NCBI GenBank assembly: GCA_049664225.1
Contig: JBATEX010000114.1
Coordinates: 56,351 to 120,350, forward strand
DNA from: Thermoanaerobaculia bacterium
GTDB lineage: Bacteria > Acidobacteriota > Thermoanaerobaculia > Multivoradales > JAHEKO01
Direction: 5' to 3'
Length of the DNA stretch: 64,000 nucleotides
The notes under the pieces were generated by a model. The model had not been told where the DNA came from and searched no databases. It saw only the letters and a list, made by a program, of their open reading frames with translations. A program made the translations under genes and the position numbers. Of this stretch, positions 2,434 to 19,825 are shown piece by piece. How positions within the stretch are numbered: position 1 is the stretch's first letter; each line of letters opens with the position of its first letter.

Positions 2434-4179
2434 TCAAGGTAAGCCGTGCGCCCCCGGCTCGTCGCCGGTGGCGCTTTCGGCATTGATCTGTAGCGATGCA
2501 ATGTGATCCTCGTAGAACCGGATGTCCGAGTTCTCCCGCAGCGTCATGAGAAGGCTATCCATGGTCTCGGCAAACTTGAGGGACTTGAGACGGTTTCGGA
2601 CGTTTCCCGACACCTCTTCGAATGAATAGTCGCCCTGTTCCTCGACCGCTGCAACTCGCAGAACCACGAAGTTGTCCTCCCACCCCTTGGGGCCGAGAAT
2701 CTCGCCTGCCTCCGTCACTCGCAGCTCGGAGGGACTGAAGGGCTCGATCGCTCGACCCGATTTGATCCACCCGCGATCGCCGCCACTGTCTTTGAACCGA
2801 TCGATAGAGCGCTGGCGGGCAATCCACGACATGTCGGCACCTTCGCGCAAGAGTTGGGCGACCTCTTCAGCCTCCTCCAGCGTGGTAGTGGTGACCTGGA
2901 AGATCCTCAGGTTCGGGGGCTTGCGAAACTCCGGGCGATGCGTTTCATAGTACTGCTCGGCCTCCTCTTGGGGAACCTCGAGGCTTGGCAAGATCACCTC
3001 GTCCAGGTATTTGCCGACCAGAAGTCGGGTCAGATTCGCCTGTTGAGCCCGCTCGACGTCTGGCGAATCACCATAGCCCATGGCCAGGGCCTCGACGAGG
3101 ATCACTTGCTCGGCGATGAGCTTATCGAGAACCAGAGGCTTGGTGAGAAGCGCTGCCTCTTCGTTTTGTACGTTGCGCCAGCGGTCGAGCAGAGCGGCCC
3201 CGAGGTCATCAGCACGAATCAAGCGGTCTTGGATTTGCACAAGGATCTGTTTGGGGTCCGGGACCACCGGCCATAGCCCCTCGCTGCCCCGGCGTTCACA
3301 CCCTATGGCGGCAATGGCCTCGTTGTCGATCTCTGGCTCATGCTTGGCGAGTAGCTCTGCCAGAAGTTCTGCCCTCAGGGTGTCCGCCTGGCGCAACTCG
3401 AGGATCCCCCGAATCCGATCCTCGACCGTTGGCAGGACTTGCGGATCAGCGGCAGCGAAGCTCTCGGCGCGGAACACCGTCCATCCCAGCTCGTTGAGAA
3501 GGGGAGCTGACAGGCTGCCTGGCTCCAGATCGAAGACGACTTCGGCGATCTCGGGAGGCAGGTTCCTGTAGGGGAAATTCTCTGCCAGTCCCCCTTGCCC
3601 TCTCAGGCCGTCGACCGAACGCTCCCTGGCGAGAGCCTCGAAATCTGCACCGGCACGGATCTCGTCGAGGAATCGGCCGGCCTCCTCTCGGGACTTCAAT
3701 GTTGCCATGTGAGCGGTGACTGTGCGGTAGTCCGACTCGAAGATCGTCTCGATCAGACTCTCGTCGATCTCGACTCGGCTCGTGATCGCCTCGTACTCGA
3801 GCCTCTCACGGGCCATGTCGTCGCGCAGTTTTTCGAGTCGCTTCGGAATGGGAGCTTCGCGATCCATCGCCAGGGCCGCGGCCTCGCCTGCGAGGAGAGC
3901 ATCCCCAACCAGCCTATTGCGGATGAGTGAGTCGACGTCGAAGTCGGGCCGCGAGGAAGCCTGAATCCGAGAGTGGAGATCGGAGAGTACCCTTTCCAGG
4001 TCCTCTACATAGACTGGCCAGTCGTTGACCATGGCCAATAAGTTCTTGTCGACAGCGACCTCTTTGGGGATTGCGCTCGAAGTCGGCTCTTCTGCCTGAG
4101 TCCCAGCCGGATGGGCGACGACTGCAAACCCAGCGATGAGGGCCAGTTGGATTGGTAGGGCCAGAAATCTGGTTGACAT
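2434..4179 (-). CDS. SurA/PpiD-like periplasmic chaperone with two PpiC (parvulin) PPIase domains
   Basis: Signal peptide MSTRFLALPIQLALIAGFAVVAHPA. There are two parvulin-like segments (...FEALARERSVDGLRGQGGLAENF... and ...MSWIARQRSIDRFKDSGGDRGWIKSG...). The ATG at 4177-4179 overlaps the TAA stop of the upstream gene (TAATG). Confidence 0.7.
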   Translation of the reverse strand: MSTRFLALPIQLALIAGFAVVAHPAGTQAEEPTSSAIPKEVAVDKNLLAMVNDWPVYVEDLERVLSDLHSRIQASSRPDFDVDSLIRNRLVGDALLAGEAAALAMDREAPIPKRLEKLRDDMARERLEYEAITSRVEIDESLIETIFESDYRTVTAHMATLKSREEAGRFLDEIRAGADFEALARERSVDGLRGQGGLAENFPYRNLPPEIAEVVFDLEPGSLSAPLLNELGWTVFRAESFAAADPQVLPTVEDRIRGILELRQADTLRAELLAELLAKHEPEIDNEAIAAIGCERRGSEGLWPVVPDPKQILVQIQDRLIRADDLGAALLDRWRNVQNEEAALLTKPLVLDKLIAEQVILVEALAMGYGDSPDVERAQQANLTRLLVGKYLDEVILPSLEVPQEEAEQYYETHRPEFRKPPNLRIFQVTTTTLEEAEEVAQLLREGADMSWIARQRSIDRFKDSGGDRGWIKSGRAIEPFSPSELRVTEAGEILGPKGWEDNFVVLRVAAVEEQGDYSFEEVSGNVRNRLKSLKFAETMDSLLMTLRENSDIRFYEDHIASLQINAESATGDEPGAHGLP

Positions 4180-5252
4180 TATCGTCCTACTCCTGTGAGT
4201 TCGAGAGATGGAGATTGATCGGCGAGATCGCTGGTCAGTCGAGCCAATAGCACCGTCAGCAGTTGGCCACGGGAGTATATGCGACGGCCCCGAAAGATCG
4301 TCTGCCGAAACCAGCCGTCACGCTCCAGTGCTCCGGTCCAGACAATTCTTCCGCTCTCGGCGTCGAGTCCTCGCAGAGCGACGGCTACAAAGGGTCTTGG
4401 TTCGGTGCCGGGACCTGCTTCATAGGCTTCGACCGATCCGGTGAGGATCAAGTTGACCTGGCACTCTTCTGCGATGGCGGTCCAGACCTCTCGGCTCAAC
4501 TCGCCCCACCTCCGAGCCCGGTGCTGCCGCAGAACCTCGGCAATTCGGTTTGGAGCCACGATGTCGACCCCGTTTTCTCGGAGCACGGAGTAGAGCGCTT
4601 GCGTGGCTGCGTCGGCGGTGGCAGACGCACGTCTCGCGCTGCTACTGCTCAGGGGTAGGACCGCTATCCTTCCGACAGCGGCCTGCCAATTCGCGCTTGA
4701 TGACGAAGATTCGAGAGGGCGGGGAGCCTCCTCGGCCGTGAGGTCGAGTTGGTCGACAAGATCCAGCAGCGCGAGGTCAGCGAGTCGATCGAGGTCCCAG
4801 ACCTCTCCGAGCCCGAGGAAGTGCAGTCCATCGATGCCGGTTGCGCTCTTGAATGCGCTGCGCGAGTCCTCCGGGGAATCTCCCCTTACCGCCAGAGCAG
4901 AGAGAGTGATGGTAGGTACAGGACGGCTGCGGGATTCATGGAGGGTCACTGAAACGAGCCAGTCGGCCTTCAGAGCTGCTGCTAGTCGAGCGAGGTTCTC
5001 GGCCCCGGCATCGTCAACCTGACGAATTCGGAGCTGGCGAAGAGTGTCGCGCACGTGATTGCGCTCGACCACGGGCCCGGTTCCGAGGAGAAGATTCTCC
5101 AGGTATGTCGCTATTCTCGCCGTCGTGACCGGGTCCGATGCGCGATCCCGCACCGAAATGATCGCCGAGGCCGGCAGCTGCCCTGAGGAGCTGGCCTCGG
5201 CAACGATAGGAAGCAGAACAAGAACGGCAACAAGGCTTGGGCGTAGGCGCAC
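4179..5252 (-). CDS. periplasmic protein with two tandem LpoB/TolB-N/CsgG-like alpha/beta domains
   Basis: Signal peptide MRLRPSLVAVLVLLPIVAEA. Two repeats carry the pattern (I/V)xV-P-L...A..L...L...G...V and ...LILTGSVEAYEAG...RPFVAVALRGLDAESGRIVWTG, which echoes the 204-aa lipoprotein next door. Confidence 0.5.
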   Translation of the reverse strand: MRLRPSLVAVLVLLPIVAEASSSGQLPASAIISVRDRASDPVTTARIATYLENLLLGTGPVVERNHVRDTLRQLRIRQVDDAGAENLARLAAALKADWLVSVTLHESRSRPVPTITLSALAVRGDSPEDSRSAFKSATGIDGLHFLGLGEVWDLDRLADLALLDLVDQLDLTAEEAPRPLESSSSSANWQAAVGRIAVLPLSSSSARRASATADAATQALYSVLRENGVDIVAPNRIAEVLRQHRARRWGELSREVWTAIAEECQVNLILTGSVEAYEAGPGTEPRPFVAVALRGLDAESGRIVWTGALERDGWFRQTIFRGRRIYSRGQLLTVLLARLTSDLADQSPSLELTGVGR

Positions 5253-5274: not shown

Positions 5275-5889
5275 TCAATCGAGAAGAGTATCGAGCAGCT
5301 TTTGGATGCACCGGCGGGTCGTCTCGGCTAGAGGTTCGCCACCCGTGCCCAGCAGGCGAGCGCCGACCGTGCTCCCCTTCTCGGTGTGAGTGGCGGCCCA
5401 GACGATGGCTCCGGTATCGGTTTCGATCATCTGGGCGTCGAGGGTGACAACGGGTCGAAGGGCGGATCCGAATCGCATGACCTCGGATTGGGCGACCGTG
5501 CCAATCACAACCGCCTGTACCCCCAGAGCCTGACCGAGGCCCAGGGCTTCTTCGGAACTGGGTGCGGTCATCCTGCCGCTGCCCATCTTGCGCATCGCCG
5601 CCTGTACCTCGCCCGGCTCGACCACGTCCAGAGCGCCGCTGGCAAGGAGCTCGGTGATCAGCAGGCGCGTAGCCCGCTCGCCGGCCTGAGAATCGGAGCT
5701 CAAATTGGCGAAGGGAATCACCGCCACCCGCTGGACGTATGAGAAATCAAAGCCGGGGTTGGCGAATTGAGTGGTCGGAAGGCTGCTCGAGCAGGCGAGC
5801 AGCGCCATCAAGCCTGTCGAGGTCAGCAGGATGAGAGAGACCCGATTGAGAGTCGTGATTCGCGATTTGCCCATGAACTTGGCCCCCAT
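5275..5889 (-). CDS. lipoprotein of the LpoB/TolB-N/CsgG-like fold
   Basis: Lipobox ...GLMALLAC|SSS. It has the motifs VAVIPFANLSSD...ATRLLITELLASGALDVVEP...VVIGTV...VTLDAQMIETDTGAIVWAA, which parallel E. coli LpoB (LLVDSVNN...LQMQLMLVQTGEIIWSG) and CsgG core strands. Its start abuts the barrel's stop codon (TGAATG). Confidence 0.6.
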   Translation of the reverse strand: MGAKFMGKSRITTLNRVSLILLTSTGLMALLACSSSLPTTQFANPGFDFSYVQRVAVIPFANLSSDSQAGERATRLLITELLASGALDVVEPGEVQAAMRKMGSGRMTAPSSEEALGLGQALGVQAVVIGTVAQSEVMRFGSALRPVVTLDAQMIETDTGAIVWAATHTEKGSTVGARLLGTGGEPLAETTRRCIQKLLDTLLD

Positions 5890-7986
5890 TCAATAGAAGA
5901 AGATGCTGAAGCCGAACAGCAGACTGTTGGTTTGTGAGGTCAGATCACCCCTGAAAGTCACCTCGGATCGGTTCCATCTGCCGGTGAGCAGAACCCGCGG
6001 GTTCAACCGATAGTCAGCCCCAACGGATGCGCCCGACGTCTTTCGCTCCGAGTCGGTGCTGCTTTGGTTGTAGGAAACATTGACGCTCAACTTCGGTCCC
6101 GGAACGAAGAAGATACCGTACCGCTGGCCGGTCGACGTTTGTTCGTTGTCTCGGGACCAAGAGAATAGGCCATTGAGAAACAGGAACGACCCGGGGCTCC
6201 AGGTCGACCCGACCTTGAAGAACTGTCGCTCCAACAGGCTTTCTTGGAGTGGCGATTCGATGAGCGAGTAACCGAGTGCACCATCGAGAGTCCAACGCTG
6301 TGTCGGCCTCGACCTGAGATCCTCACGCCATGACCATGTATTGCGATCCTGATCTCCGGTCGGATCAGTGAGTTCGGAATAGGAGAGAGTGGAAGTCAAG
6401 TCGAGGTCGGGCAGCAAGGCGGTAAACACTCTGAGACGGATGGCGTCGACGGTCTGGAGCAACAGCTCCTTCTCGGCTTGGTCCCTCCGGCTTGCCGAAA
6501 GGACTGCGTCGAGCGTTGGCAGCGGCACCCATCGCAGTGCCGCATCGATCGTCTCGGTCGTGCGAAACAGACCCCCAGCCGTGCGATTCTCGGAGTCGCT
6601 GTAACGATAGCCGCCACTGAGCTCGAGATCCGAAGTCAATCGAACCCCGACGCTGCCCGACGCGTGACGTTCGTTGAAGTCGCGCCGCACAATGCCCGCC
6701 GTCACGGTCTCGTCGTTGCTGCCTCCGAGGTTGAACCTGGCTGTCACTCGGCGTGAGGGGCGCAAGCCGAGAGAAACATCCCCACGATAGAGTGTACTGT
6801 CTTGGGTGCTCTCTCCCGGCTCGATGTCGAGGTCTCTGAAAGCGGCAATCTCAGTCACCAGGACCACTGGAACCACGTTGGGTGAGATGTTGACGACCTT
6901 GAAGAAACGCTGGTTGGTCTCAGGAAAGCTGACTCTATAGAGCTGTCGACCAGCGTCGAATTCCGCCGACTCGCCCGCTACCCGCTCCCAGATCAGGTTG
7001 TCGGCGCTCTGAAACACCTGCCACAGCACGGCGGGGCCCGAAGGCCGATCGACCGAGACCTCGAGACGCGAGACAGGCAGAATCGCGCCGACGTCGATGC
7101 CGAGATTCCGAAAGGCGTTACCACCACCGATATCGATGATCGGAGGGGAGGGAGTAAAACGGTCGCCGTCGATGAGTCCAGGAGCGGGCTCGAGCTCGCC
7201 AACCTCCGGTGAAGTATCGATCGCGTAGAGGCCCTGAACCGCTGGAATCGGCTCGGCGAGGTCGTCATCTCCAGAGGTCCTCGACTGACTCTCGATGCGA
7301 CCCGCCGAGCCCGAGAAGCCCAGGCGGAGGCGCTCGTCGAAGAAGCCACGGCTTCCCGCCAGTCTCAATCGATGGACATCCTGGAGCGAGGCGAAGTCGG
7401 TAGATTCCTTCTCCAGGTCGTTGCGATTGAAGGAGTATCCCGCAGACCACCGTTTCCGCCTGTAGGTCGCATCGAAGAGGTAGGTGCGTTGGTGACCATC
7501 CCGGCCCAGGGCCGACACGTCGGCCTCGTTCTTGGAGTCGCGCGCCTGGCCCGAAAGAGTCAGCCCCCTCGTTGCGCGCCACGAGAAGCCGCCAAACAGC
7601 GCGTCAGACTGAAAGTCCTCGCTTTCGAAGGTTCCCTGAGACGTCCGCCGCTCAGCTCCCAGGTATGCGGACAAGGATGGCCTGTCATAGAGCAGCTGAA
7701 ATCGGGGATTCTGTCGGGTGCGGCTCGCCTCCGGTAGGCCGCTGAACTGGGAGGTGTAATCATAGTAGCGATAGCCGGCCTGCAATTTCAAGAAAGGCGC
7801 CAATTCCTCGGTCAGCCTCAGCGAGTACTTTTGCTCGAGGTTGTCACTGTCGGTCGCCAGGGTGTCGACGGATGTCCAGTAGACGATGGCGGTCGCGTTG
7901 AAGTCGAGGGCAAGAGCGAGTTGAGGCGAGGTCAAGAACGCAACGAGGGCGACTCGAGCCAACAGCTGTTGAAGGTCCAGGCGCAT
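5890..7986 (-). CDS. large outer-membrane beta-barrel protein (698 aa) with an internal soluble insert
   Basis: Signal peptide MRLDLQQLLARVALVAFLTSPQLALA. The body shows alternating hydrophobic/polar amphipathic strand patterns. The C-terminus ...LLFGFSIFFY ends in an aromatic residue, as in BAM-dependent OMPs. A polar/Pro-rich insert of about 150 aa (DDDLAEPIPAV...VTEIAAF) sits mid-protein. Confidence 0.7.
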   Translation of the reverse strand: MRLDLQQLLARVALVAFLTSPQLALALDFNATAIVYWTSVDTLATDSDNLEQKYSLRLTEELAPFLKLQAGYRYYDYTSQFSGLPEASRTRQNPRFQLLYDRPSLSAYLGAERRTSQGTFESEDFQSDALFGGFSWRATRGLTLSGQARDSKNEADVSALGRDGHQRTYLFDATYRRKRWSAGYSFNRNDLEKESTDFASLQDVHRLRLAGSRGFFDERLRLGFSGSAGRIESQSRTSGDDDLAEPIPAVQGLYAIDTSPEVGELEPAPGLIDGDRFTPSPPIIDIGGGNAFRNLGIDVGAILPVSRLEVSVDRPSGPAVLWQVFQSADNLIWERVAGESAEFDAGRQLYRVSFPETNQRFFKVVNISPNVVPVVLVTEIAAFRDLDIEPGESTQDSTLYRGDVSLGLRPSRRVTARFNLGGSNDETVTAGIVRRDFNERHASGSVGVRLTSDLELSGGYRYSDSENRTAGGLFRTTETIDAALRWVPLPTLDAVLSASRRDQAEKELLLQTVDAIRLRVFTALLPDLDLTSTLSYSELTDPTGDQDRNTWSWREDLRSRPTQRWTLDGALGYSLIESPLQESLLERQFFKVGSTWSPGSFLFLNGLFSWSRDNEQTSTGQRYGIFFVPGPKLSVNVSYNQSSTDSERKTSGASVGADYRLNPRVLLTGRWNRSEVTFRGDLTSQTNSLLFGFSIFFY

Positions 7987-8189
7987 TCTTCGGATTTCTG
8001 TGCTGGGCGACCTCGAGTCCGGAGCGATAGAGGGCAGGTGGAGCCTCGCCTACCGGTGGATGGTGTCACTCTGCACCGCAGCTGTCACCGGCTAAAAGGG
8101 TGGTGTCCCTGGGGGTCTGGGGTAGGTTGCGAACTACCCTTTTGATCAGGCCTACACCGCGCGGGCCACTCCGCACCGGCCGATACTAG

Positions 8190-8217
8190 AAAAATGCCCG
8201 GGGCCGAAGCCCCGGGC
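8190..8217 (-). terminator. Rho-independent terminator immediately downstream of the hexahaem cytochrome gene
   Basis: The minus-strand RNA would read GCCCGGGGC-UUCG-GCCCCGGGC followed by AUUUUUCUAG. That is a 9-bp GC stem with a UUCG tetraloop and a U-run, 30 nt after the stop at 8248. Confidence 0.7.
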
Positions 8218-8247
8218 ACGGATTCAATCAACCAGCTGGCTTGCGGG

Positions 8248-9381
8248 TTACGGAATAATCAGGCTATCGAAAATGTCCTGGCCGTGGCACTTGTTGCAGA
8301 GCGAACGCGTAACCAGGTCGGCCGGGTACGGATTCGGCAGTGGGTAGGTCCCGAAGGCGTCGCCGTCCTCTTCCAGAAAGGTCACGTTGAAGTCCCAGCG
8401 GCCGGAGTCGGCAGCCGAGGATGCGTGCGCGAAATGGCAGGTCACACAGGCGACCACGCTGGAATCCTGAGCACCGACGGTCGAGCCTATGTCGGTTTCA
8501 TCGAAGGTCGAATCTTCGAAGGGCACCTGCCATAGGTAGGCTGTGGCTGCGGTACCGCTGCCACAGGGCGGTGCAGTGGAGGCGACACAGTCGGTCGTTC
8601 CCATGTAGGCGTTGTACTGCTCCCAGACTTCTTCCATGGATTCGCCCGAGGGATGGATGTCGCGGCCTGAGCCCTGATGGAACAGGCCATGGCACGTCGA
8701 GCACCACGCGCTGTAGTTCAAGACGTAGACATTGTGCTCAGGATCGACCCGTGGGTCGTTGCTCAGTGACTGTCCATACGCTTCGATGGTCGCGGCGTAG
8801 GTGACCGACGAAACGCCGAGATCCACTTCCTGGTCTTGACGATAGAGGAGCCGGAAACTGTCGTTGCCGTGTGGGTCGTGGCAGCTCGAGCAGGCGATGT
8901 CGTTGTCTACGGTATTGCTGCTGCCGGGTGCCCAGTCGAGGGTCTGGTCGACATCGGTACCCTTGATATTCGACGCGATGTTGTGGCCAGCCGCGTCGCC
9001 AGGAATCGGAGCGCCACGTGTCGACTCGGCTAGATTGGCTTCGGTCAAGAAGCTGAAGTCACCAGCGTTTCCGAAGTCGACGGGGTCTGTCGCATCGGGA
9101 CTCCACACCGAGTAGCTCCTGCCTGTACGGCCATGGCAGCGCAGGCAAACGTCACTCCTGTTCGGAAAGAGAAGGAGGTCGTTGTAGCCTTCGCCAGGGA
9201 GTTTGTCTGGGTTGATCGGATTGCCGTTGGCATCCGCCTCGGTGCCGTTCATGGCAACACCGTTCTGGCTGTTGTGCATGGTGTGGCAACCGTTGCAGTG
9301 AGCGACACCACCGTCATGGAAAGCCATGACCGGGGTGGCGAGGATCACTGCGGCGGCCACCAGTAGCAGGGTTTTTTTCAT
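8248..9381 (-). CDS. secreted hexahaem c-type cytochrome, OmcS-like (candidate nanowire subunit)
   Basis: Start at the internal Met (MKKTLLLVAAAVILATPVMA|F) preceded by AAGGAG. There are six CxxCH motifs (CNGCH, CLRCH, CSSCH, CSTCH, CVTCH, CNKCH). The mature N-terminus FHDGGVAHCNGCHTMHN resembles Geobacter OmcS as I recall it (FHSGGVAECEGCHTMHN; Phe1 and His16). The C-terminus ...LCNKCHGQD is also similar. Confidence 0.75.
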   Translation of the reverse strand: MKKTLLLVAAAVILATPVMAFHDGGVAHCNGCHTMHNSQNGVAMNGTEADANGNPINPDKLPGEGYNDLLLFPNRSDVCLRCHGRTGRSYSVWSPDATDPVDFGNAGDFSFLTEANLAESTRGAPIPGDAAGHNIASNIKGTDVDQTLDWAPGSSNTVDNDIACSSCHDPHGNDSFRLLYRQDQEVDLGVSSVTYAATIEAYGQSLSNDPRVDPEHNVYVLNYSAWCSTCHGLFHQGSGRDIHPSGESMEEVWEQYNAYMGTTDCVASTAPPCGSGTAATAYLWQVPFEDSTFDETDIGSTVGAQDSSVVACVTCHFAHASSAADSGRWDFNVTFLEEDGDAFGTYPLPNPYPADLVTRSLCNKCHGQDIFDSLIIP

Positions 9382-9456
9382 TTGGCTTCTCCTTTGTTCA
9401 AAGTAACCGGAGTTCCGGTTGGTTTGCGTTTCTATTCTCCCTCGGCCCTCTATGTG

Positions 9457-9472
9457 AGCAAGGGGCATGCCA
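9457..9472 (-). promoter_or_regulatory. sigma-54 (-24/-12) promoter for the cytochrome/barrel operon
   Basis: The minus strand reads CTGGCATGCCCCTTGCT, i.e. TGGCAT-N5-TTGC against the consensus TGGCAC-N5-TTGC. It lies about 75 nt upstream of ATG 9381. An NtrC-family activator is encoded just upstream. Confidence 0.6.
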
Positions 9473-9656
9473 GGTCCCGAGGCTCGCTTGGTTGATTGAA
9501 ATGCGAGGATAAATAGCCATTCGTGCATGGGCGTAAAGCCTCTAATTGCTGAGGTTTACCATTCAAAGTGCTGGTGCTCTCGATGAAAACGGAGCGACCT
9601 TGGAGCATGCCCCGAGCCCTCACCACGATCATTAGAAGGCTTGTGGGGCGTTTGGG

Positions 9657-9674
9657 TGGGGAATATTCCCCACT
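9657..9674. promoter_or_regulatory. 18-bp perfect palindrome, candidate enhancer (UAS) for the sigma-54 activator
   Basis: GTGGGGAATATTCCCCAC lies about 200 bp upstream of the sigma-54 -12 element. Confidence 0.45.
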
Positions 9675-9802
9675 TTGGGAGAGCTTGTGCGGAATTTCAC
9701 AAGGTGTGCCGAGGAGATATAGCACTTCTTCGATGGGATCTGGAGAATCCGCCTGAAACGGCAGCTGGGTCGGTATCAGGACAACGACAGAGTTGTCAGG
9801 GG

Positions 9803-10198
9803 TCAAGTCTCGGGTGTCTCACTGCCCTTGACTTTGTACTCGTTGTAGCGCACCAGGCGCTCGAGCTGCTCCTTGAGATCGGAAGCGTGGTAGGGCTTCT
9901 CGATGAAGAAGCAGGAGTGATTCAGGGGGCCGAGGCCGGCCTCTTCGGGGCTGTGAAACACGCAAGATTCAAACAGTACCGGGATTTTCGGCGACCGACC
10001 CTGGCAGAGATCCTGGAACTCTCTCCAGGGAAGGCCGTCGGGGCCGATGTTGGCTATGACGGCCTCGGGCGGCCGTTTCTCGAGGGCCGAGAGAGCGTCG
10101 TCGAAGGTGGAGACCTCTTCGAGATCGACCTGGCCGTCGAGAATTCTCTTGATGATCGAGATCAACAAATGACTGCCGTCGAGGACTAGGAACCGCAT
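9803..10198 (-). CDS. stand-alone CheY-like receiver-domain protein (possibly atypical)
   Basis: I chose the second ATG, which is preceded by GGGAGGG: MRFLVLDGSHLLISIIKRIL...AVIANIGPDGLPW...IPVLFES...IEKPY. This is a receiver fold. By my manual alignment the usual phospho-Asp position appears to be Asn. The ORF-track N-terminal extension overlaps a repeat and was not used. Confidence 0.5.
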   Translation of the reverse strand: MRFLVLDGSHLLISIIKRILDGQVDLEEVSTFDDALSALEKRPPEAVIANIGPDGLPWREFQDLCQGRSPKIPVLFESCVFHSPEEAGLGPLNHSCFFIEKPYHASDLKEQLERLVRYNEYKVKGSETPET

Positions 10199-10286
10199 TT
10201 CGCGCCCTCCCATTTCATGCAGAACGGTCAATACAAGTGCAAGGAATGGGCCAGGTGTGACGCGAGGTCCAAGAGTCGGTGGGGAT

Positions 10287-10328
10287 CCCAGGGGGCTTTC
10301 CTCCCTCCCGGTGCAAGAACCCCCTGAG
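10287..10328. repeat. family B hairpin element (CCAGGGGG / CCCCCTGG stem with a conserved ~24-nt loop), copy 1 (divergent loop)
   Basis: CCCAGGGGGCTTTCCTCCCTCCCGGTGCAAGAACCCCCTGAG. Confidence 0.7.
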
Positions 10329-10480
10329 ATCCCCAACGACACCTGGACCAGATCCTCGTCGTCTGCGCAAGACCCGAGTACGGGAACCGGTGATGTTGCG
10401 CCGTGCACGCCCACCCACCCCGGCCGGCAGAGGCGCCACGGGCGGGGGCAAGCGCAGACCCGACGAAGAATGGTGGTCAT

Positions 10481-10506
10481 CCAGGACCCAGGACCCAGGC
10501 CCCAAG
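10481..10506. repeat. short tandem repeat (CCAGGAC) 3 times, same heptamer family as 14877
   Basis: CCAGGACCCAGGACCCAGGCCCCAAG, adjacent to the family-C fragment GGCGGGGGCAAGC at 10441-10454. Confidence 0.7.
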
Positions 10507-10518
10507 ACGGGTGGGGCG

Positions 10519-11880
<1,362 letters not shown>

Positions 11881-11887
11881 GGGCTAA

Positions 11888-13573
11888 TCAAGCGGGGTCG
11901 TTTCCCGGGAGCGCCGGTTCTGTGAGTTCTGACTCGTCAAGTGCATCGCTGTCTGATGTCGGTGCCGGCTCTTCACCCTCTTCCCCTGGAAGGATCAAGT
12001 AGAAGTTCGTTCCCTTGCCGACTTCGGAATCGACTTGCAGCGTACCACCGTGCTGCTCCACGAGGCTCCGAGCGATGGCCAGTCCGAGGCCTGTCCCTGA
12101 GAACTTGGTGGAGAAGAAGGGCTCGAATACACGCTTGAGCTGTTCGGGTGGGATGCCGGGGCCGTCGTCTTGCACCGCCAGCACGATGCCGCCGCCTTCT
12201 GGGAAGCCGCTAGCACGAACCGTGACGGCCCCACCGTCCTCCATGGCTTCGGCGGCGTTCTGGATGAGGTTGAGGAGCACCTGCCGAATCTTCGAGCCGT
12301 CGATCTGGGCCTCCAGGGGGCCTTCGGTTAGATCGAGCTCCAGGGCCACGTTCTGGCGTCGCAAACCGGGGGCCATGAGGATGCGGACGTCGTCCAACAG
12401 CTTGTTGAGATCGGTTTTCGCCAAGCGGGCCGGGCCGGGTCGTGCCGAGCCGAGCAGGCTGCGCAGCGTCCCATTGACCCGCTTCAGCTCGCTCAGCATC
12501 TCGTCGTACAGCTCTTTGTTGGAGTCGCTTACCGATGGTTCTTCCCGCAAGATCTCCAGTGCACCCTGAATTCCGGCCAGGGGATTCTTGATTTCATGGG
12601 CAAGACCGGCCGCCAGGCTGCCGAGGCTCGCCAGCTGGTCAGTGTGGGCCAGTTTGGTAGCTACCTCCGCTTGCCGGCGACGCTGCCGCTGCAGGAACTG
12701 CTGGAGGGAGCGCTGGAGCTCCGCCGAATGGGGGTCGAGGACCAGCCGGTGGGCTCCGGAGGCCGGTCCCTCGCCCGACTCGGCGGCGGCCAGTTCCTCT
12801 TCGAATTTGCTGGAGAAACGTTGCACGGATCGCCTAACCAGGGCGTTGATGCCGCCCAGGGCCGCTGCCCAGGCCAGCAGGAGGAGTCCGACATTACGCC
12901 GCGAGTGCTTTCGGACCGTTTGGAGAGCGTTGGTGACGTCCATGCTCATGGAGGCGACGGCAAGCGTTTCACCAGCGGAGTGGCAGCGCACGCACTGCTC
13001 CGTGGAAATCACTTTGCTAATACCCCGCACCCTTTCGCGATCTCCCTCTGCACTGAGCCACACCTCCTGCAAGCGTGGGCTGGGAATGAACTCCTGCACG
13101 ACCTCGAGCTCTGGGACCGTGATTCCGGTGGCGGCTCCAATTGTCCTTCCGTCAGGAAACATCAGTTTGAGATTCATGCCCTGGTGGCCGGCCAGAACCG
13201 CCTCGAACATGTGGCGGACACCGCCGCCACGGGTGTGTGCAACGGCGATCTGGTTGAGTTCTCGAGTCGCGATATTCAGTCTTCCTTCGGCTGTTTCGCG
13301 AGCCAGGCCCACGACTTCCATCTCCGTGATGCGGACCGTCGCGAAGTAGAGAATCCAAAAGGCGAACAGGTGCAGGGGCAGAGTGATCAGCCAGAAGCGC
13401 CCACGGCGAGCCATGAAAGCGCGGAACCGGGCCCGCCTACCGGGCCTGCTCAGGACCTCCACAGGTCCATCGGAAGAGTCGATCTCGGGGAGTTCCCCGT
13501 TGGTCTCTTCGCTGCCGGCAACGCCAGGCTCGATCGCTCCTTCGATGGGTCCCTCGGATTCCTGCGATGTCAT
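11888..13573 (-). CDS. sensor histidine kinase with a periplasmic CxxCH (haem-c) sensor domain
   Basis: TM1 FWLITLPLHLFAFWILYFATV. A periplasmic segment of about 170 aa contains CVRCH (nt ~12980-12994). TM2 VGLLLLAWAAALGGINALV. H-box LAHEIKNPLAGIQ. HATPase motif GTGLGLAIARSLVEQHGGTL. The start is ambiguous (M at 13573 or 13414). Confidence 0.85.
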   Translation of the reverse strand: MTSQESEGPIEGAIEPGVAGSEETNGELPEIDSSDGPVEVLSRPGRRARFRAFMARRGRFWLITLPLHLFAFWILYFATVRITEMEVVGLARETAEGRLNIATRELNQIAVAHTRGGGVRHMFEAVLAGHQGMNLKLMFPDGRTIGAATGITVPELEVVQEFIPSPRLQEVWLSAEGDRERVRGISKVISTEQCVRCHSAGETLAVASMSMDVTNALQTVRKHSRRNVGLLLLAWAAALGGINALVRRSVQRFSSKFEEELAAAESGEGPASGAHRLVLDPHSAELQRSLQQFLQRQRRRQAEVATKLAHTDQLASLGSLAAGLAHEIKNPLAGIQGALEILREEPSVSDSNKELYDEMLSELKRVNGTLRSLLGSARPGPARLAKTDLNKLLDDVRILMAPGLRRQNVALELDLTEGPLEAQIDGSKIRQVLLNLIQNAAEAMEDGGAVTVRASGFPEGGGIVLAVQDDGPGIPPEQLKRVFEPFFSTKFSGTGLGLAIARSLVEQHGGTLQVDSEVGKGTNFYLILPGEEGEEPAPTSDSDALDESELTEPALPGNDPA

Positions 13574-13604
13574 TCGGCTCGGGTGACCTCGGCTTGAATT
13601 CCGG

Positions 13605-14423
13605 CTAGGTGGTCTTATTGCCCCTGAGCGCCATGAAGACCAGGAGAATGCCCACGCCGATGACAATCAGGCCTGGAACCAGCCAGGGAGACACTCCCTC
13701 GGATGGAGGTGGTCCGGCCTGGCTTGCAGCTCCACTGGTAGGCACTGACGCAGGAGACTGGAAGGTCTGAGCTGGTGTCTGTGGAACAGCCGATTGCATG
13801 GCGTTCGCAGTGAGCATCGGGGAACTCTTCGTGTAGTCGATTTCGATCGCGAAGGTCTGGTCGACGGCTGCCGGGCCGAGGTCTCCGCGTTGATAGATGA
13901 GGCCGTCGTTGGCCAGGGCGGGTGCGCTGCTAGCGGGCTGCACCACGAAACCGGTAGCGCCGATCGGTTGCATGACCTCGAACAGGACGCGATCTGCTGC
14001 CAAGCCCCCAGGCCATTCGAAGTGGTAGTGGCGGTTCTCGTTGCCCAAATCGAGGGGTATGTAGTACTCGAGGCGAATCTCGGGAGCGTCGGTCGAGATG
14101 TAGACCGTGCTCATAGGGTCGCCGGCTTCCAGCATGGACTGGGCGACAAGCAGATCGCCCCCTGGGAACCTCTTTGCCACGGCGCTCGGACTCCCTGCCG
14201 CGGCTGGAATCGGCAACGGTACCGAGGTCGGAAGTGGGGTGTCTGGCGAGAGAAAGCCCCGAAGCATCACGAGCACCGAAGGCTGGTCGTACTCCGGCCA
14301 GATGGAGATCTCCAGGCGCTCGAGGCGCGGCGTGGCCGGTGCAGGCGCTTCCTGGGCGGAAGCAATGCCTGCCGAGGTCAAGAGTAGGACAAGGAAGGCG
14401 AGAGTCGTTGGCCTGGTCTTCAT
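13605..14423 (-). CDS. secreted protein with a C-terminal membrane anchor, function unknown
   Basis: Internal-Met start with signal peptide MKTRPTTLAFLVLLLTSAGIASA|Q. C-terminal helix WLVPGLIVIGVGILLVFMAL. It sits immediately upstream of, and overlaps, the kinase gene. Confidence 0.45.
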   Translation of the reverse strand: MKTRPTTLAFLVLLLTSAGIASAQEAPAPATPRLERLEISIWPEYDQPSVLVMLRGFLSPDTPLPTSVPLPIPAAAGSPSAVAKRFPGGDLLVAQSMLEAGDPMSTVYISTDAPEIRLEYYIPLDLGNENRHYHFEWPGGLAADRVLFEVMQPIGATGFVVQPASSAPALANDGLIYQRGDLGPAAVDQTFAIEIDYTKSSPMLTANAMQSAVPQTPAQTFQSPASVPTSGAASQAGPPPSEGVSPWLVPGLIVIGVGILLVFMALRGNKTT

Positions 14424-14876: not shown

Positions 14877-14960
14877 ACCCAGGACCCAGGACCCAGGACC
14901 CAGGACCCGGGACCCAAGCCCCTGCGCCCCTAAGCCCTTGAGCCCCTACGCCCTGCTTCT
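14877..14960. repeat. short tandem repeat array: (ACCCAGG) about 6 times, then CCCCTNNG octamer variants
   Basis: ACCCAGGACCCAGGACCCAGGACCCAGGACCCGGGACCCAAG, then CCCCTGCGCCCCTAAGCCCTTGAGCCCCTACGCCCTG. Confidence 0.8.
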
Positions 14961-15957
14961 AGAGCTCCGCTTTCCAGGACTTGAGGATGTCCATGTAGTT
15001 GGCGCGCTCGTAGGCGCCGGGGTCGGGGCTGCGGCTGAGGTTCATCGAGCCCTTGGCCTGGGCCAGGGAGTCGTAGTCGTGGTCGATGAGCCACTGGGCC
15101 AGCTCGCGGCGCACGATGCGAAGGTAGTCGGGGCCGTGCTTGAGCAGGGCCGAGACCATCTGCACGGCGTCGGCACCGGTCATGATGGCTTTGACCGCGT
15201 CGATCTCGCCATGCACGCCGCCGCTGACCGCGAAGGAGCAGTCCAACTGCCCCGAGAGGATCGCCAGCCAGCGCAGTCGAAGGAGCAGTGCCGATGAGGT
15301 GGAAAGGACCAGGGTCCTCTGGACCTCCAGCTCTTCGACGTCGATGTCCGCCTGGTAGAAGCGGTTGAAAAGCACCAGGCCATCCGCCCCGGCATCCACC
15401 AGGCGCTTGCCGAAGTTGGCGAGCGAGGTGTAGTAGGCGGAGAGCTTGACCGCCACCGGGATCGAGATCTGTTGCTTGACCTCGGCGACGATCTCGACGA
15501 AGCGCTGCTCGAGCTCGGCACCGCTCTCGTTCGGGTCCGTGGCCAGGTGGTAGACGTTCAATTCCAGGGCGTTGGCGCCAGTCTCCTCGATGAGGCCGGC
15601 GTACTCCAGCCAGCGGCCCTTGGTGGTGCCGTTGAGGGAGCCGATGACGGGGACCTTGACGGCCTCCACGACCCTCCGCAACTTGTTCAGGTACTCGTCG
15701 GGGCCATAGGGTAGCGAGTCGGGCTCTGGAAAGTACGACAGCGCTTCGGCGAAGGAGTTGGCCGGATCTTCCGTCAGGCGGGAAGCGGCGATCTCCTCGT
15801 GCGCGATCTGCTCTTCGAAGAGCGAGTTCATGCAGATGGCGGCGGCGCCGGCGTCCTCCAGCTGCTTCACGGTGTCCAGATCGTCCACCATGGGGGAGGC
15901 CCCGGGCATGAAGGGGTGGGGCAGGTCAAAACCTAGGTATCGAGTCGACAGGTCCAT
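14959..15957 (-). CDS. dihydroorotate dehydrogenase-like (PyrD/DHPD family) TIM-barrel flavoprotein
   Basis: N-terminus ...LGFDLPHPFMPGASPMVDD... resembles the PyrD-class motif. It also has ...IPVAVKLSAYY...GADGLVLFNRF. Confidence 0.55.
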   Translation of the reverse strand: MDLSTRYLGFDLPHPFMPGASPMVDDLDTVKQLEDAGAAAICMNSLFEEQIAHEEIAASRLTEDPANSFAEALSYFPEPDSLPYGPDEYLNKLRRVVEAVKVPVIGSLNGTTKGRWLEYAGLIEETGANALELNVYHLATDPNESGAELEQRFVEIVAEVKQQISIPVAVKLSAYYTSLANFGKRLVDAGADGLVLFNRFYQADIDVEELEVQRTLVLSTSSALLLRLRWLAILSGQLDCSFAVSGGVHGEIDAVKAIMTGADAVQMVSALLKHGPDYLRIVRRELAQWLIDHDYDSLAQAKGSMNLSRSPDPGAYERANYMDILKSWKAEL

Positions 15958-15969
15958 GGCTGCTCTCTC

Positions 15970-19557
<3,588 letters not shown>

Positions 19558-19825
19558 GATGAGTCGTTCCTTGTCGAAAAGCGCGGGTCGCGAGTCTTGT
19601 GGGCGTAGAGGCGTAGGGGCTTGGGGGCATCGGGCCCCGCCTTGCGATTGCCAGGCTAGCAGTAGGCACAGGGGCAGCCTACACCCAGGTGGGTGGACCC
19701 GGGGGCGAGAATGCCCCACCCTCAAGGGTGGGTGTGAGGCTACCCTTCTGCCTCTGGCACTGCTGCGGGGTCAGAGCAATGATTGGATGGGGTATTCTCT
19801 TGGCAGCACCAAAAGGGGAACCAAA

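Follow-up and report, generated by a model that had tools for sequence, protein, structure and literature searches.

Sigma-54 promoters need an enhancer-binding protein, and glnAp2 of enteric bacteria with its activator NtrC (NRI) is the archetypal enhancer-dependent promoter of this kind. Among multihaem cytochrome genes, cbcBA of Geobacter sulfurreducens belongs to a sigma-54-dependent unit that comprises a stand-alone receiver and multihaem cytochromes for extracellular electron transfer, is induced as the redox potential falls and lies beside the gene of the REC-AAA+-HTH sigma-54 activator BccR (bioRxiv 10.1101/2021.04.15.440034). In the same organism a kinase (GSU2507) and a sigma-54 response regulator (GSU2506) adjoin omcS (GSU2504) and the omcS-companion (osc) cluster, and deletion of GSU2507 has been reported to raise omcB transcripts (PMC10599522, PMC11077965, PMC13194489). 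Moreover, the DVU3142-ohcBAC regulon and those of other enhancer-binding proteins of Desulfovibrio vulgaris have been predicted by comparative logic (PMC4641369). A literature search for omcS together with sigma-54, RpoN or enhancer-binding proteins, made in the searchable library, returned no report of a promoter or enhancer, and the timing of cytochrome "nanowire" production is poorly understood, even in Geobacter. Here we analyse the control region of an OmcS-like cytochrome gene in a 64-kb stretch of DNA from a Thermoanaerobaculia bacterium (contig JBATEX010000114.1, positions 56,351 to 120,350, hereafter the window, numbered from its first nucleotide), and we consider it likely, judging from sequence and comparison, that a classical enhancer-dependent sigma-54 promoter controls this OmcS-family gene by the mechanism proposed below.

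The module is a further instance of a well-known regulatory type, and its mechanism is textbook; as this mechanism is standard, the locus is of value for annotation and as a source of hypotheses, less so as new biology. It provides a compact, conserved cis-regulatory module in the Acidobacteriota (a phylum that abounds in soils and sediments), made up of a defined promoter, a 16-18-bp putative activator site and a kinase with a haem-binding motif. With it, the hypothesis that a periplasmic redox signal turns on OmcS-type cytochromes by way of sigma-54 becomes testable, and the motif can be used for finding further regulon members in metagenomes.

The promoter is a 17-nt string, CTGGCATGCCCCTTGCT, on the minus strand at 9473-9457. 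An earlier interpretation of this DNA made without database searches (the sequence-only reading) had already recognized the -24/-12 match, which is present, although one base off the coordinates assigned to it. GG (9471-9470) and GC (9459-9458) are separated by exactly the 10 nt of sigma-54 promoters, i.e. the GG-N10-GC arrangement also found at glnAp2, and the -24/-12 element TGGCATGCCCCTTGCT (9472-9457) deviates from TGGCAC-N5-TTGCW by a single core mismatch, the number given before. Likewise, the distance to the gene start had been put at about 75 nt and is 77 nt from the promoter GC to the ATG at 9381, which is preceded by a Shine-Dalgarno sequence (AAGGAG-N7-ATG). Transcription is predicted to start near 9446, resulting in a 5' untranslated region (5' UTR) of ~65 nt. 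When the window was scanned with a sigma-54 weight matrix, a check suggested by the sequence-only reading, the promoter of the OmcS-like gene obtained the top score on both strands (15.8 bits; 128 kb), followed by a site at 10253 with 14.3 bits, both being intergenic and correctly oriented.

Upstream of the promoter we find a perfect 18-bp palindrome, GTGGGGAATATTCCCCAC, at 9656-9673 (the palindrome itself had been noted before, but at 9657-9674), which on the basis of its symmetry and conservation is the putative proximal, strong enhancer site. Its centre is located 194 bp upstream of the -24 GG, i.e. at about -218 relative to the predicted start, in agreement with the ~200 bp, a typical enhancer range, of the sequence-only reading. 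That reading equated the enhancer with the palindrome, which is indeed conserved; a second conserved site, TTGTGAAATTCCGCACAA (9685-9702, minus strand), has to be included, its centre being 29 bp beyond that of the palindrome, at about -247. This distal, weaker site may be either a second activator site or the site of another factor. The arrangement resembles glnAp2 in that the sites are dyads of 17-18 bp with G+C-rich arms and an A+T-rich centre and, for related loci, in that two sites stand about three helical turns apart (31-32 bp), whereas it differs in motif (TGNGGAATATTCCNCA) and position, the sites of glnAp2 lying closer, at -108 and -140. An IHF site between enhancer and promoter is frequent, yet not obligatory, and the IHF consensus WATCAANNNNTTR had no match in any of the 16 enhancer-promoter spacers inspected.

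The evidence that carries our interpretation is comparative. A one-genome-per-species scan with the cytochrome protein yielded 80 loci (773 kb, or 1.55 Mb over both strands; loci bear L numbers), which are mostly from uncultured Acidobacteriota (Thermoanaerobaculia, Polarisedimenticolaceae), the others coming from further sediment phyla. In nine of them (L001, L002, L003, L037, L044, L045, L046, L065 and L074) the best upstream sigma-54 score amounts to 15-18 bits at 87-109 nt before the start codon, and with four metagenome loci that have an equivalent promoter of at least 15 bits in this range of positions (L085, L104, L113 and L132) there are 13 further loci in total; antisense controls seldom exceeded 10 bits. 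Matches of at least 14 bits are rare, with just 30 in 1.55 Mb, nine of which are the cytochrome promoter and three the promoter of a pseudo-receiver gene described below. Moreover, TGNGGAATATTCCNCA, with up to two mismatches allowed, is nearly confined in the 773 kb to the region upstream of sigma-54 promoters of OmcS homologues (L001 and L061, twice each, L002, L003, L037, L044, L045, L065 and L074; L057 is the single stray). In 16 loci, a TGNGGAATATTCCNCA site accompanies a strong -24/-12 match, in 15 cases before the cytochrome gene and in L049 before the barrel gene.

Between the -24 element and the nearest strong site there are 82-273 bp across the loci (15 besides the window), with a cluster at 193-205, and such a varying distance is as expected of DNA looping. 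With a matrix built from the palindrome sites we added weaker partner sites, which revealed paired palindrome-like sites 31-32 bp apart in L001, L037, L044, L045, L061 and L074. Two alignments were inspected, A1 consisting of the window, L001 and L065, and A2 of the window and the closer L085, L104 and L113. In A2 all 17 promoter columns are invariant, compared with 26% of the remaining spacer; for the palindrome it is 16 of 18 columns (15 of 18 in A1) and for the distal site 15 of 18 (13 of 18 in the other alignment). Promoter and both sites thus constitute conserved islands within an otherwise diverged spacer. In L049, the palindrome-like site GTGCGGGATTTCCCCCAC and the sigma-54 promoter TGGTACCGAACTTGCT (2052-2166) are located in the spacer that separates the OmcS homologue from the barrel gene, so that the module precedes the barrel gene there.

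The palindrome was also sought independently of cytochrome genes, by an exact scan of metagenome contigs for the 16-mer TGGGGAATATTCCCCA, which returned at least 120 loci. Among the matches listed, 13 sigma-54 matches of at least 14 bits are found 60-450 bp off the palindrome and pointing away from it, whereas 2.4 would be expected from the rate elsewhere within those metagenome loci. Also among the matches listed, the families represented are the osc-type loci L085, L104, L113 and L132 and, lacking a cytochrome homologue, L082, L192 and a group formed by L095, L105, L111, L136, L160 and L164. The distance between palindrome and promoter is ~105-120 bp in L082, L192 and the L095 group, and another, weaker site is present 34-42 bp further out than the palindrome in L082 and the L095 group. 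L082 and L101 contain nearby genes for enhancer-binding proteins that are 42-45% identical to the regulator of the window and have similar recognition helices. Since the palindrome is enriched by sigma-54 promoters in unrelated loci, it is, as far as sequence context tells, a putative enhancer used more widely among sigma-54 systems.

As to the loci of the L095 group themselves, TTGGGGAATATTCCCCAA stands ~110 bp upstream of TGGCACGG-N3-(A/G)TGCA in all six, and this promoter precedes a gene for a small secreted protein (MNSKNSFLLAALLATVTTLSSFAQ...) with a long, repeat-rich 5' UTR. Where the contig extends, a gene for a ~416-amino-acid protein comes after it, joined in L095 and L111 by a histidine kinase gene.

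Several points weigh against control by an enhancer-dependent promoter; those on chance are given here, those on the identity of the binding factor together with the regulator below. In the window alone both elements are at chance level. The promoter pattern, counted there as TGGCAC-N5-TTGC with at most one mismatch, occurs four times, with 4.16 expected, and perfect palindromes of at least 18 bp turned up in 31 of 100 dinucleotide shuffles, which is not significant. The weight matrix was composed after the published consensus and is approximate, and so are the bit scores. A search of the 64 kb for the RpoN box gave no match, i.e. rpoN is not in the window; that an enhancer-binding protein is encoded here speaks only indirectly for rpoN in the genome. 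Furthermore, the organism is known from metagenomes only, the support consisting of sequence and comparison, and the metagenome loci with oriented sigma-54 matches represent about five families and are not independent. One might therefore argue that both matches are non-functional products of chance and that the gene is transcribed from an unrecognized sigma-70-type promoter: the statistics of the window are unremarkable, and a sigma-70-type consensus scan of 8000-12000, which found none, was a simple one that may not cover acidobacterial promoters. However, although the proteins of the compared loci share only 36-50% identity, both elements have kept their position and sequence, and due to this conservation we do not attribute promoter and palindrome to chance and regard an origin by chance as highly improbable.

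The candidate for binding the palindrome is encoded at 10519-11880 (minus strand). It is an NtrC-family response regulator and sigma-54 activator, as had been claimed, composed of REC (PF00072, 5e-26), sigma-54 AAA+ (PF00158, 3e-63) and HTH_8 (PF02954, 7e-13) domains. Like NtrC it thus combines REC, AAA+ and a Fis-type HTH and is paired with a histidine kinase. It stays below the cut-off of all named NCBIfam equivalogs (AtoC, PrsR, NtrC, ZraR and others), the best scores being 396, 378 and 375 bits as compared to cut-offs of 714, 503 and 559, and it differs from NtrC in scoring 374 bits against the cut-off of 559 of the NtrC equivalog, in its target, an extracellular cytochrome rather than nitrogen assimilation, and in the loop that contacts sigma-54. 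This loop is GAFTDA in the window, L001 and L065 and GSFTDA in L074, whereas the reference form is GAFTGA; GAFTDA is listed as a loop variant compatible with activation (PMC4641369).

Orthologues of the regulator, 65-94% identical, adjoin the module not only in the window but also in L001, L065, L074, L061 (partly masked) and L085, and all those that read intact have the recognition helix NQTRAAELLG[VI]TRDQLRYRL in common, L065 being apparently frameshifted within the helix. In contrast, a paralogue in L056 (39% identical) has a different helix, and no palindrome is found there. The metagenome-assembled genome CALZKB01 contains the module of promoter and palindrome twice, with the regulator gene beside the copy in L074 and not beside that in L044, which fits a small regulon. 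The sequence-only reading had proposed to look for the palindrome elsewhere, and it does recur, before the cytochrome genes of related loci and in both CALZKB01 copies. Its combination of sigma-54 promoter, upstream palindromic enhancer and nearby activator is well supported by comparison, whereas the binding step is one we infer: adjacency in six lineages and the shared recognition helix suggest that the adjacent regulator binds the palindrome.

Next to the regulator gene, at 11888-13666 (minus strand, start codon uncertain), lies the gene of the partner sensor histidine kinase (HisKA and HATPase_c by Pfam). A CXXCH motif is kept in its predicted periplasmic loop, as CVRCH in the window, CIRCH in L001 and L065 and CVPCH in L132; at the level of sequence, this makes the kinase a candidate c-type haem-based sensor.

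The identity of the binding factor may be viewed differently. The sigma-54 promoter could be real, with the palindrome and/or the distal site bound by a CRP/FNR-family factor (TGNGN-N6-NCNCA) or by an activator encoded elsewhere, while the adjacent regulator acts at other targets. Both sites fit this general frame; the distal site matches the palindrome matrix poorly (<8 bits) and, being TGTGA-AATTCC-GCACA, is a single base off the CRP/FNR-type pattern TGTGA-N6-TCACA. The pattern also occurs in relatives devoid of the sigma-54 promoter, i.e. as TTGTGA-N6-TCACAA ~190 nt before the start of the OmcS homologue in L005 (5821), L008 (5807) and L067 (5807). Additionally, L044, L045 and L046 carry promoter and site, but no regulator gene was found within ~5 kb upstream. 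On the other hand, these two sites are the only conserved blocks upstream of the promoter, a spacing of 31-32 bp within pairs and a variable distance from the promoter are what enhancer sites typically show, sigma-54 promoters of unrelated loci also have the palindrome nearby more often than expected, and genes for enhancer-binding proteins are close by in three independent lineages (the clade of the window, L082 and L101). Taking both sides into account, we consider binding by another factor unlikely, the resemblance of the distal site to the pattern in L005, L008 and L067 making a CRP/FNR-type factor at this site a live alternative. In these three loci a CRP/FNR-like site stands before OmcS homologues that lack the sigma-54 promoter, suggesting, from sequence, that one and the same cluster has come under different control there. 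A divergent ccsBA-like cytochrome-biogenesis gene adjoins the CRP/FNR-like site in L005 and L008.

The regulator gene had been taken for the next gene upstream of the enhancer, which turned out not to be the case. A small, conserved receiver-like open reading frame (ORF) with its own sigma-54 promoter intervenes (9803-10198, minus strand, 131 amino acids). Its phospho-acceptor Asp is replaced by Asn (IANIG), as it is in most of the orthologues, which were found in nine loci (L001, L002, L045, L065, L074, L085, L104, L113 and L132), L074 retaining the Asp; no match to the protein was obtained in Pfam and NCBIfam. The second sigma-54 promoter, TGGCCCATTCCTTGCA (10253-10238, minus strand), is the 14.3-bit runner-up mentioned above and lies 41 nt before the receiver-like start codon. 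TGG...CCTTGCA is invariant in six loci at 30-45 nt before this codon, and the equivalents in L001, L002 and L065 score 15.0-15.9 bits. A longer version of the ORF with 225 codons (start at 10480) was ruled out because the orthologues begin with MR(L/F)LVLDG and have the conserved promoter just upstream.

Upstream of this second promoter, ~200 nt of non-coding DNA (10281-10470, minus strand) are nearly identical in the window and L085, whereas the next spacer is diverged outside the footprints. Just upstream of the promoter, this block includes a long inverted repeat, GGGGATCTCAGGGGG-N24-CCCCCTGGGATCCCC (10281-10334). Rfam yielded nothing for the whole window at gathering score, including no cyclic-dinucleotide riboswitch, and for 9300-10600 at E<=1 only chance miRNA-like hairpin matches at 10259-10360.

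The position of the pseudo-receiver gene raises the question of whether the palindrome belongs to it, forming its 3' hairpin/terminator or enhancing the promoter at 10253 from downstream. The palindrome is 130 nt past the stop codon of this gene, and its sequence would allow a stem of 7 bp closed by a loop of 4 nt; moreover, in L074 only ~40 bp separate the regulator gene from the pseudo-receiver promoter, leaving no space for a separate upstream site. Yet no T-run follows the palindrome on the gene strand, and the variants TGCGG...CCCCA and TGTGG...CCGCA break the pairing without compensation, which speaks against an RNA hairpin/terminator and in favour of a protein-binding DNA site. L044, L003 and L037 keep palindrome and promoter with no pseudo-receiver match upstream (the upstream sequence being short in L003 and L037). 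We thus find an assignment of the palindrome to the pseudo-receiver gene improbable; its acting on both promoters would be compatible with the proposed control of the cytochrome gene.

The putative target gene of the promoter encodes a secreted hexahaem cytochrome of 377 amino acids with six CXXCH motifs (8248-9381, minus strand). Its designation as OmcS-like is borne out by phmmer, whose alignment with OmcS (PDB 6EF8/6NEF) begins at the mature N-terminus FHDGGVAHCNGCHTMHNS and reaches the C-terminal CNKCH (E = 1.5e-22 for 6EF8). A homologue search with a PDB-derived OmcS fragment returned short proteins 55-87% identical, GSU2504 not being among them. In terms of sequence and gene order we regard the 377-residue protein as a true OmcS homologue within an osc-like cluster. 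29 nt past its stop codon lies an intrinsic-terminator-like hairpin (8219-8194, minus strand) of 11 pairs, nine of them G-C, that is followed by TTTTTCT, and a hairpin with T-run, differing in sequence, is found in the spacer between OmcS homologue and barrel gene of 13 of 17 loci. As this terminator-like hairpin follows the cytochrome gene and is conserved, the cytochrome/barrel operon of the sequence-only reading is doubtful; the cytochrome gene is probably the main one that the promoter serves, and the barrel gene may be transcribed by read-through or from a separate promoter.

Downstream, all on the minus strand, follow the genes for a beta-barrel of 698 amino acids with weak porin/MtrB matches (5890-7986), a CsgG/LpoB-like lipoprotein (5275-5889; Pfam/NCBIfam), a 357-amino-acid protein taken from the ORF listing (4179-5252), a PpiC-domain protein (2434-4179; Pfam/NCBIfam) and a large multihaem cytochrome with 12 doubled-CXXCH (Paired_CXXCH_1) repeats (453-2501; Pfam/NCBIfam). 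The order OmcS homologue, barrel, lipoprotein, 357-residue protein and PpiC protein is kept in more than 20 of the 80 loci. This layout matches that of the osc cluster of Geobacter (summarized in PMC13194489), in that the channel-like OscEFG and the prolyl isomerase OscH correspond to the barrel, the lipoproteins and the PpiC protein of the window in the same order, the correspondence being one of layout. Both loci also have a pair of kinase and sigma-54 activator genes immediately upstream of the OmcS gene; in contrast to the pair of the window, GSU2506 is annotated with PAS and GSU2507 with Cache and HAMP.

Based on these findings we propose that the kinase would detect a periplasmic redox or ligand signal, probably via c-type haem, and would phosphorylate the receiver domain of the activator. 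Activator dimers may then fill the strong and the weak site and build an ATPase ring, which looped DNA would carry to the sigma-54 holoenzyme waiting in a closed complex at the -24/-12 element, and ATP hydrolysis acting through the GAFTDA loop would finally open the promoter. Transcripts would begin near 9446 and mostly stop at the hairpin 8219-8194, so that the cytochrome subunit might outnumber the products of the downstream barrel, lipoprotein and prolyl-isomerase (osc-like) genes. The second sigma-54 promoter would drive the pseudo-receiver gene, whose product could possibly exert feedback on the system.

In this combination of elements the locus is similar to BccR-cbcBA, where an activator gene likewise adjoins a sigma-54 unit with a stand-alone receiver and multihaem cytochromes. 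Nevertheless, the product of cbcBA is a bc-type complex of the inner membrane, and the operon runs divergently from the regulator gene, whereas the cytochrome here is a secreted OmcS-type protein encoded in the same orientation as the regulator; moreover, the module here includes a CXXCH kinase, and the dependence on BccR was shown genetically, whereas the control here is predicted from sequence and comparison. With DVU3142-ohcBAC the locus shares an activator gene by a multihaem cytochrome gene or operon, a conserved sigma-54 promoter, an upstream palindrome and GAFTDA, which was accepted there as an active loop variant, although phylum, cytochrome family and motif are different.

Some related loci match the window in opposite halves. 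L085 and L113 exhibit 75-77% DNA identity to the window over 9234-10986, i.e. from the regulator through the first ~147 nt of the cytochrome gene, past which their mature cytochrome is just 47% identical to that of the window. In L132 the situation is reversed: DNA identity is 84% over window 5409-9393, from 12 nt before the ATG through cytochrome, barrel and lipoprotein, whereas the regulatory part is diverged, the pseudo-receiver being 46% identical. The locus is a mosaic, and the 5' end of the cytochrome gene seems to be the point at which its regulatory and structural cassettes recombine. We tentatively speculate that a portable cassette for redox-sensing control may comprise the kinase with its haem-binding motif, the activator, the pseudo-receiver, the enhancer, the sigma-54 promoter, the 5' UTR and the signal peptide and may be joined by recombination, at the conserved 5' end of the cytochrome gene, to various cassettes for OmcS-type subunits and their assembly, with the palindrome TGGGGAATATTCCCCA as the shared enhancer of a wider subfamily of sigma-54 activators, an idea we deem possible but rather doubtful. 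If it were true, close relatives would keep one control circuit while exchanging the extracellular cytochrome they display.

Further features flank the regulatory region or lie within it. A small hairpin/palindrome, AACCGG-AACT-CCGGTT (9404-9421, minus strand), is located in the predicted 5' UTR of the cytochrome gene, ~20 nt before the Shine-Dalgarno sequence. In nine of 14 loci the equivalent place of the 5' UTR has a CCGG-N4-6-CCGG element; the palindrome at 9404-9421 may serve as an operator or as a stem that stabilises the mRNA. Judged by their translations, two ORFs upstream of the regulatory genes are a dihydroorotate-dehydrogenase-like ORF (14959-15957, minus strand) and a pyruvate:ferredoxin oxidoreductase-like ORF of 1251 amino acids (15970-19725, minus strand).

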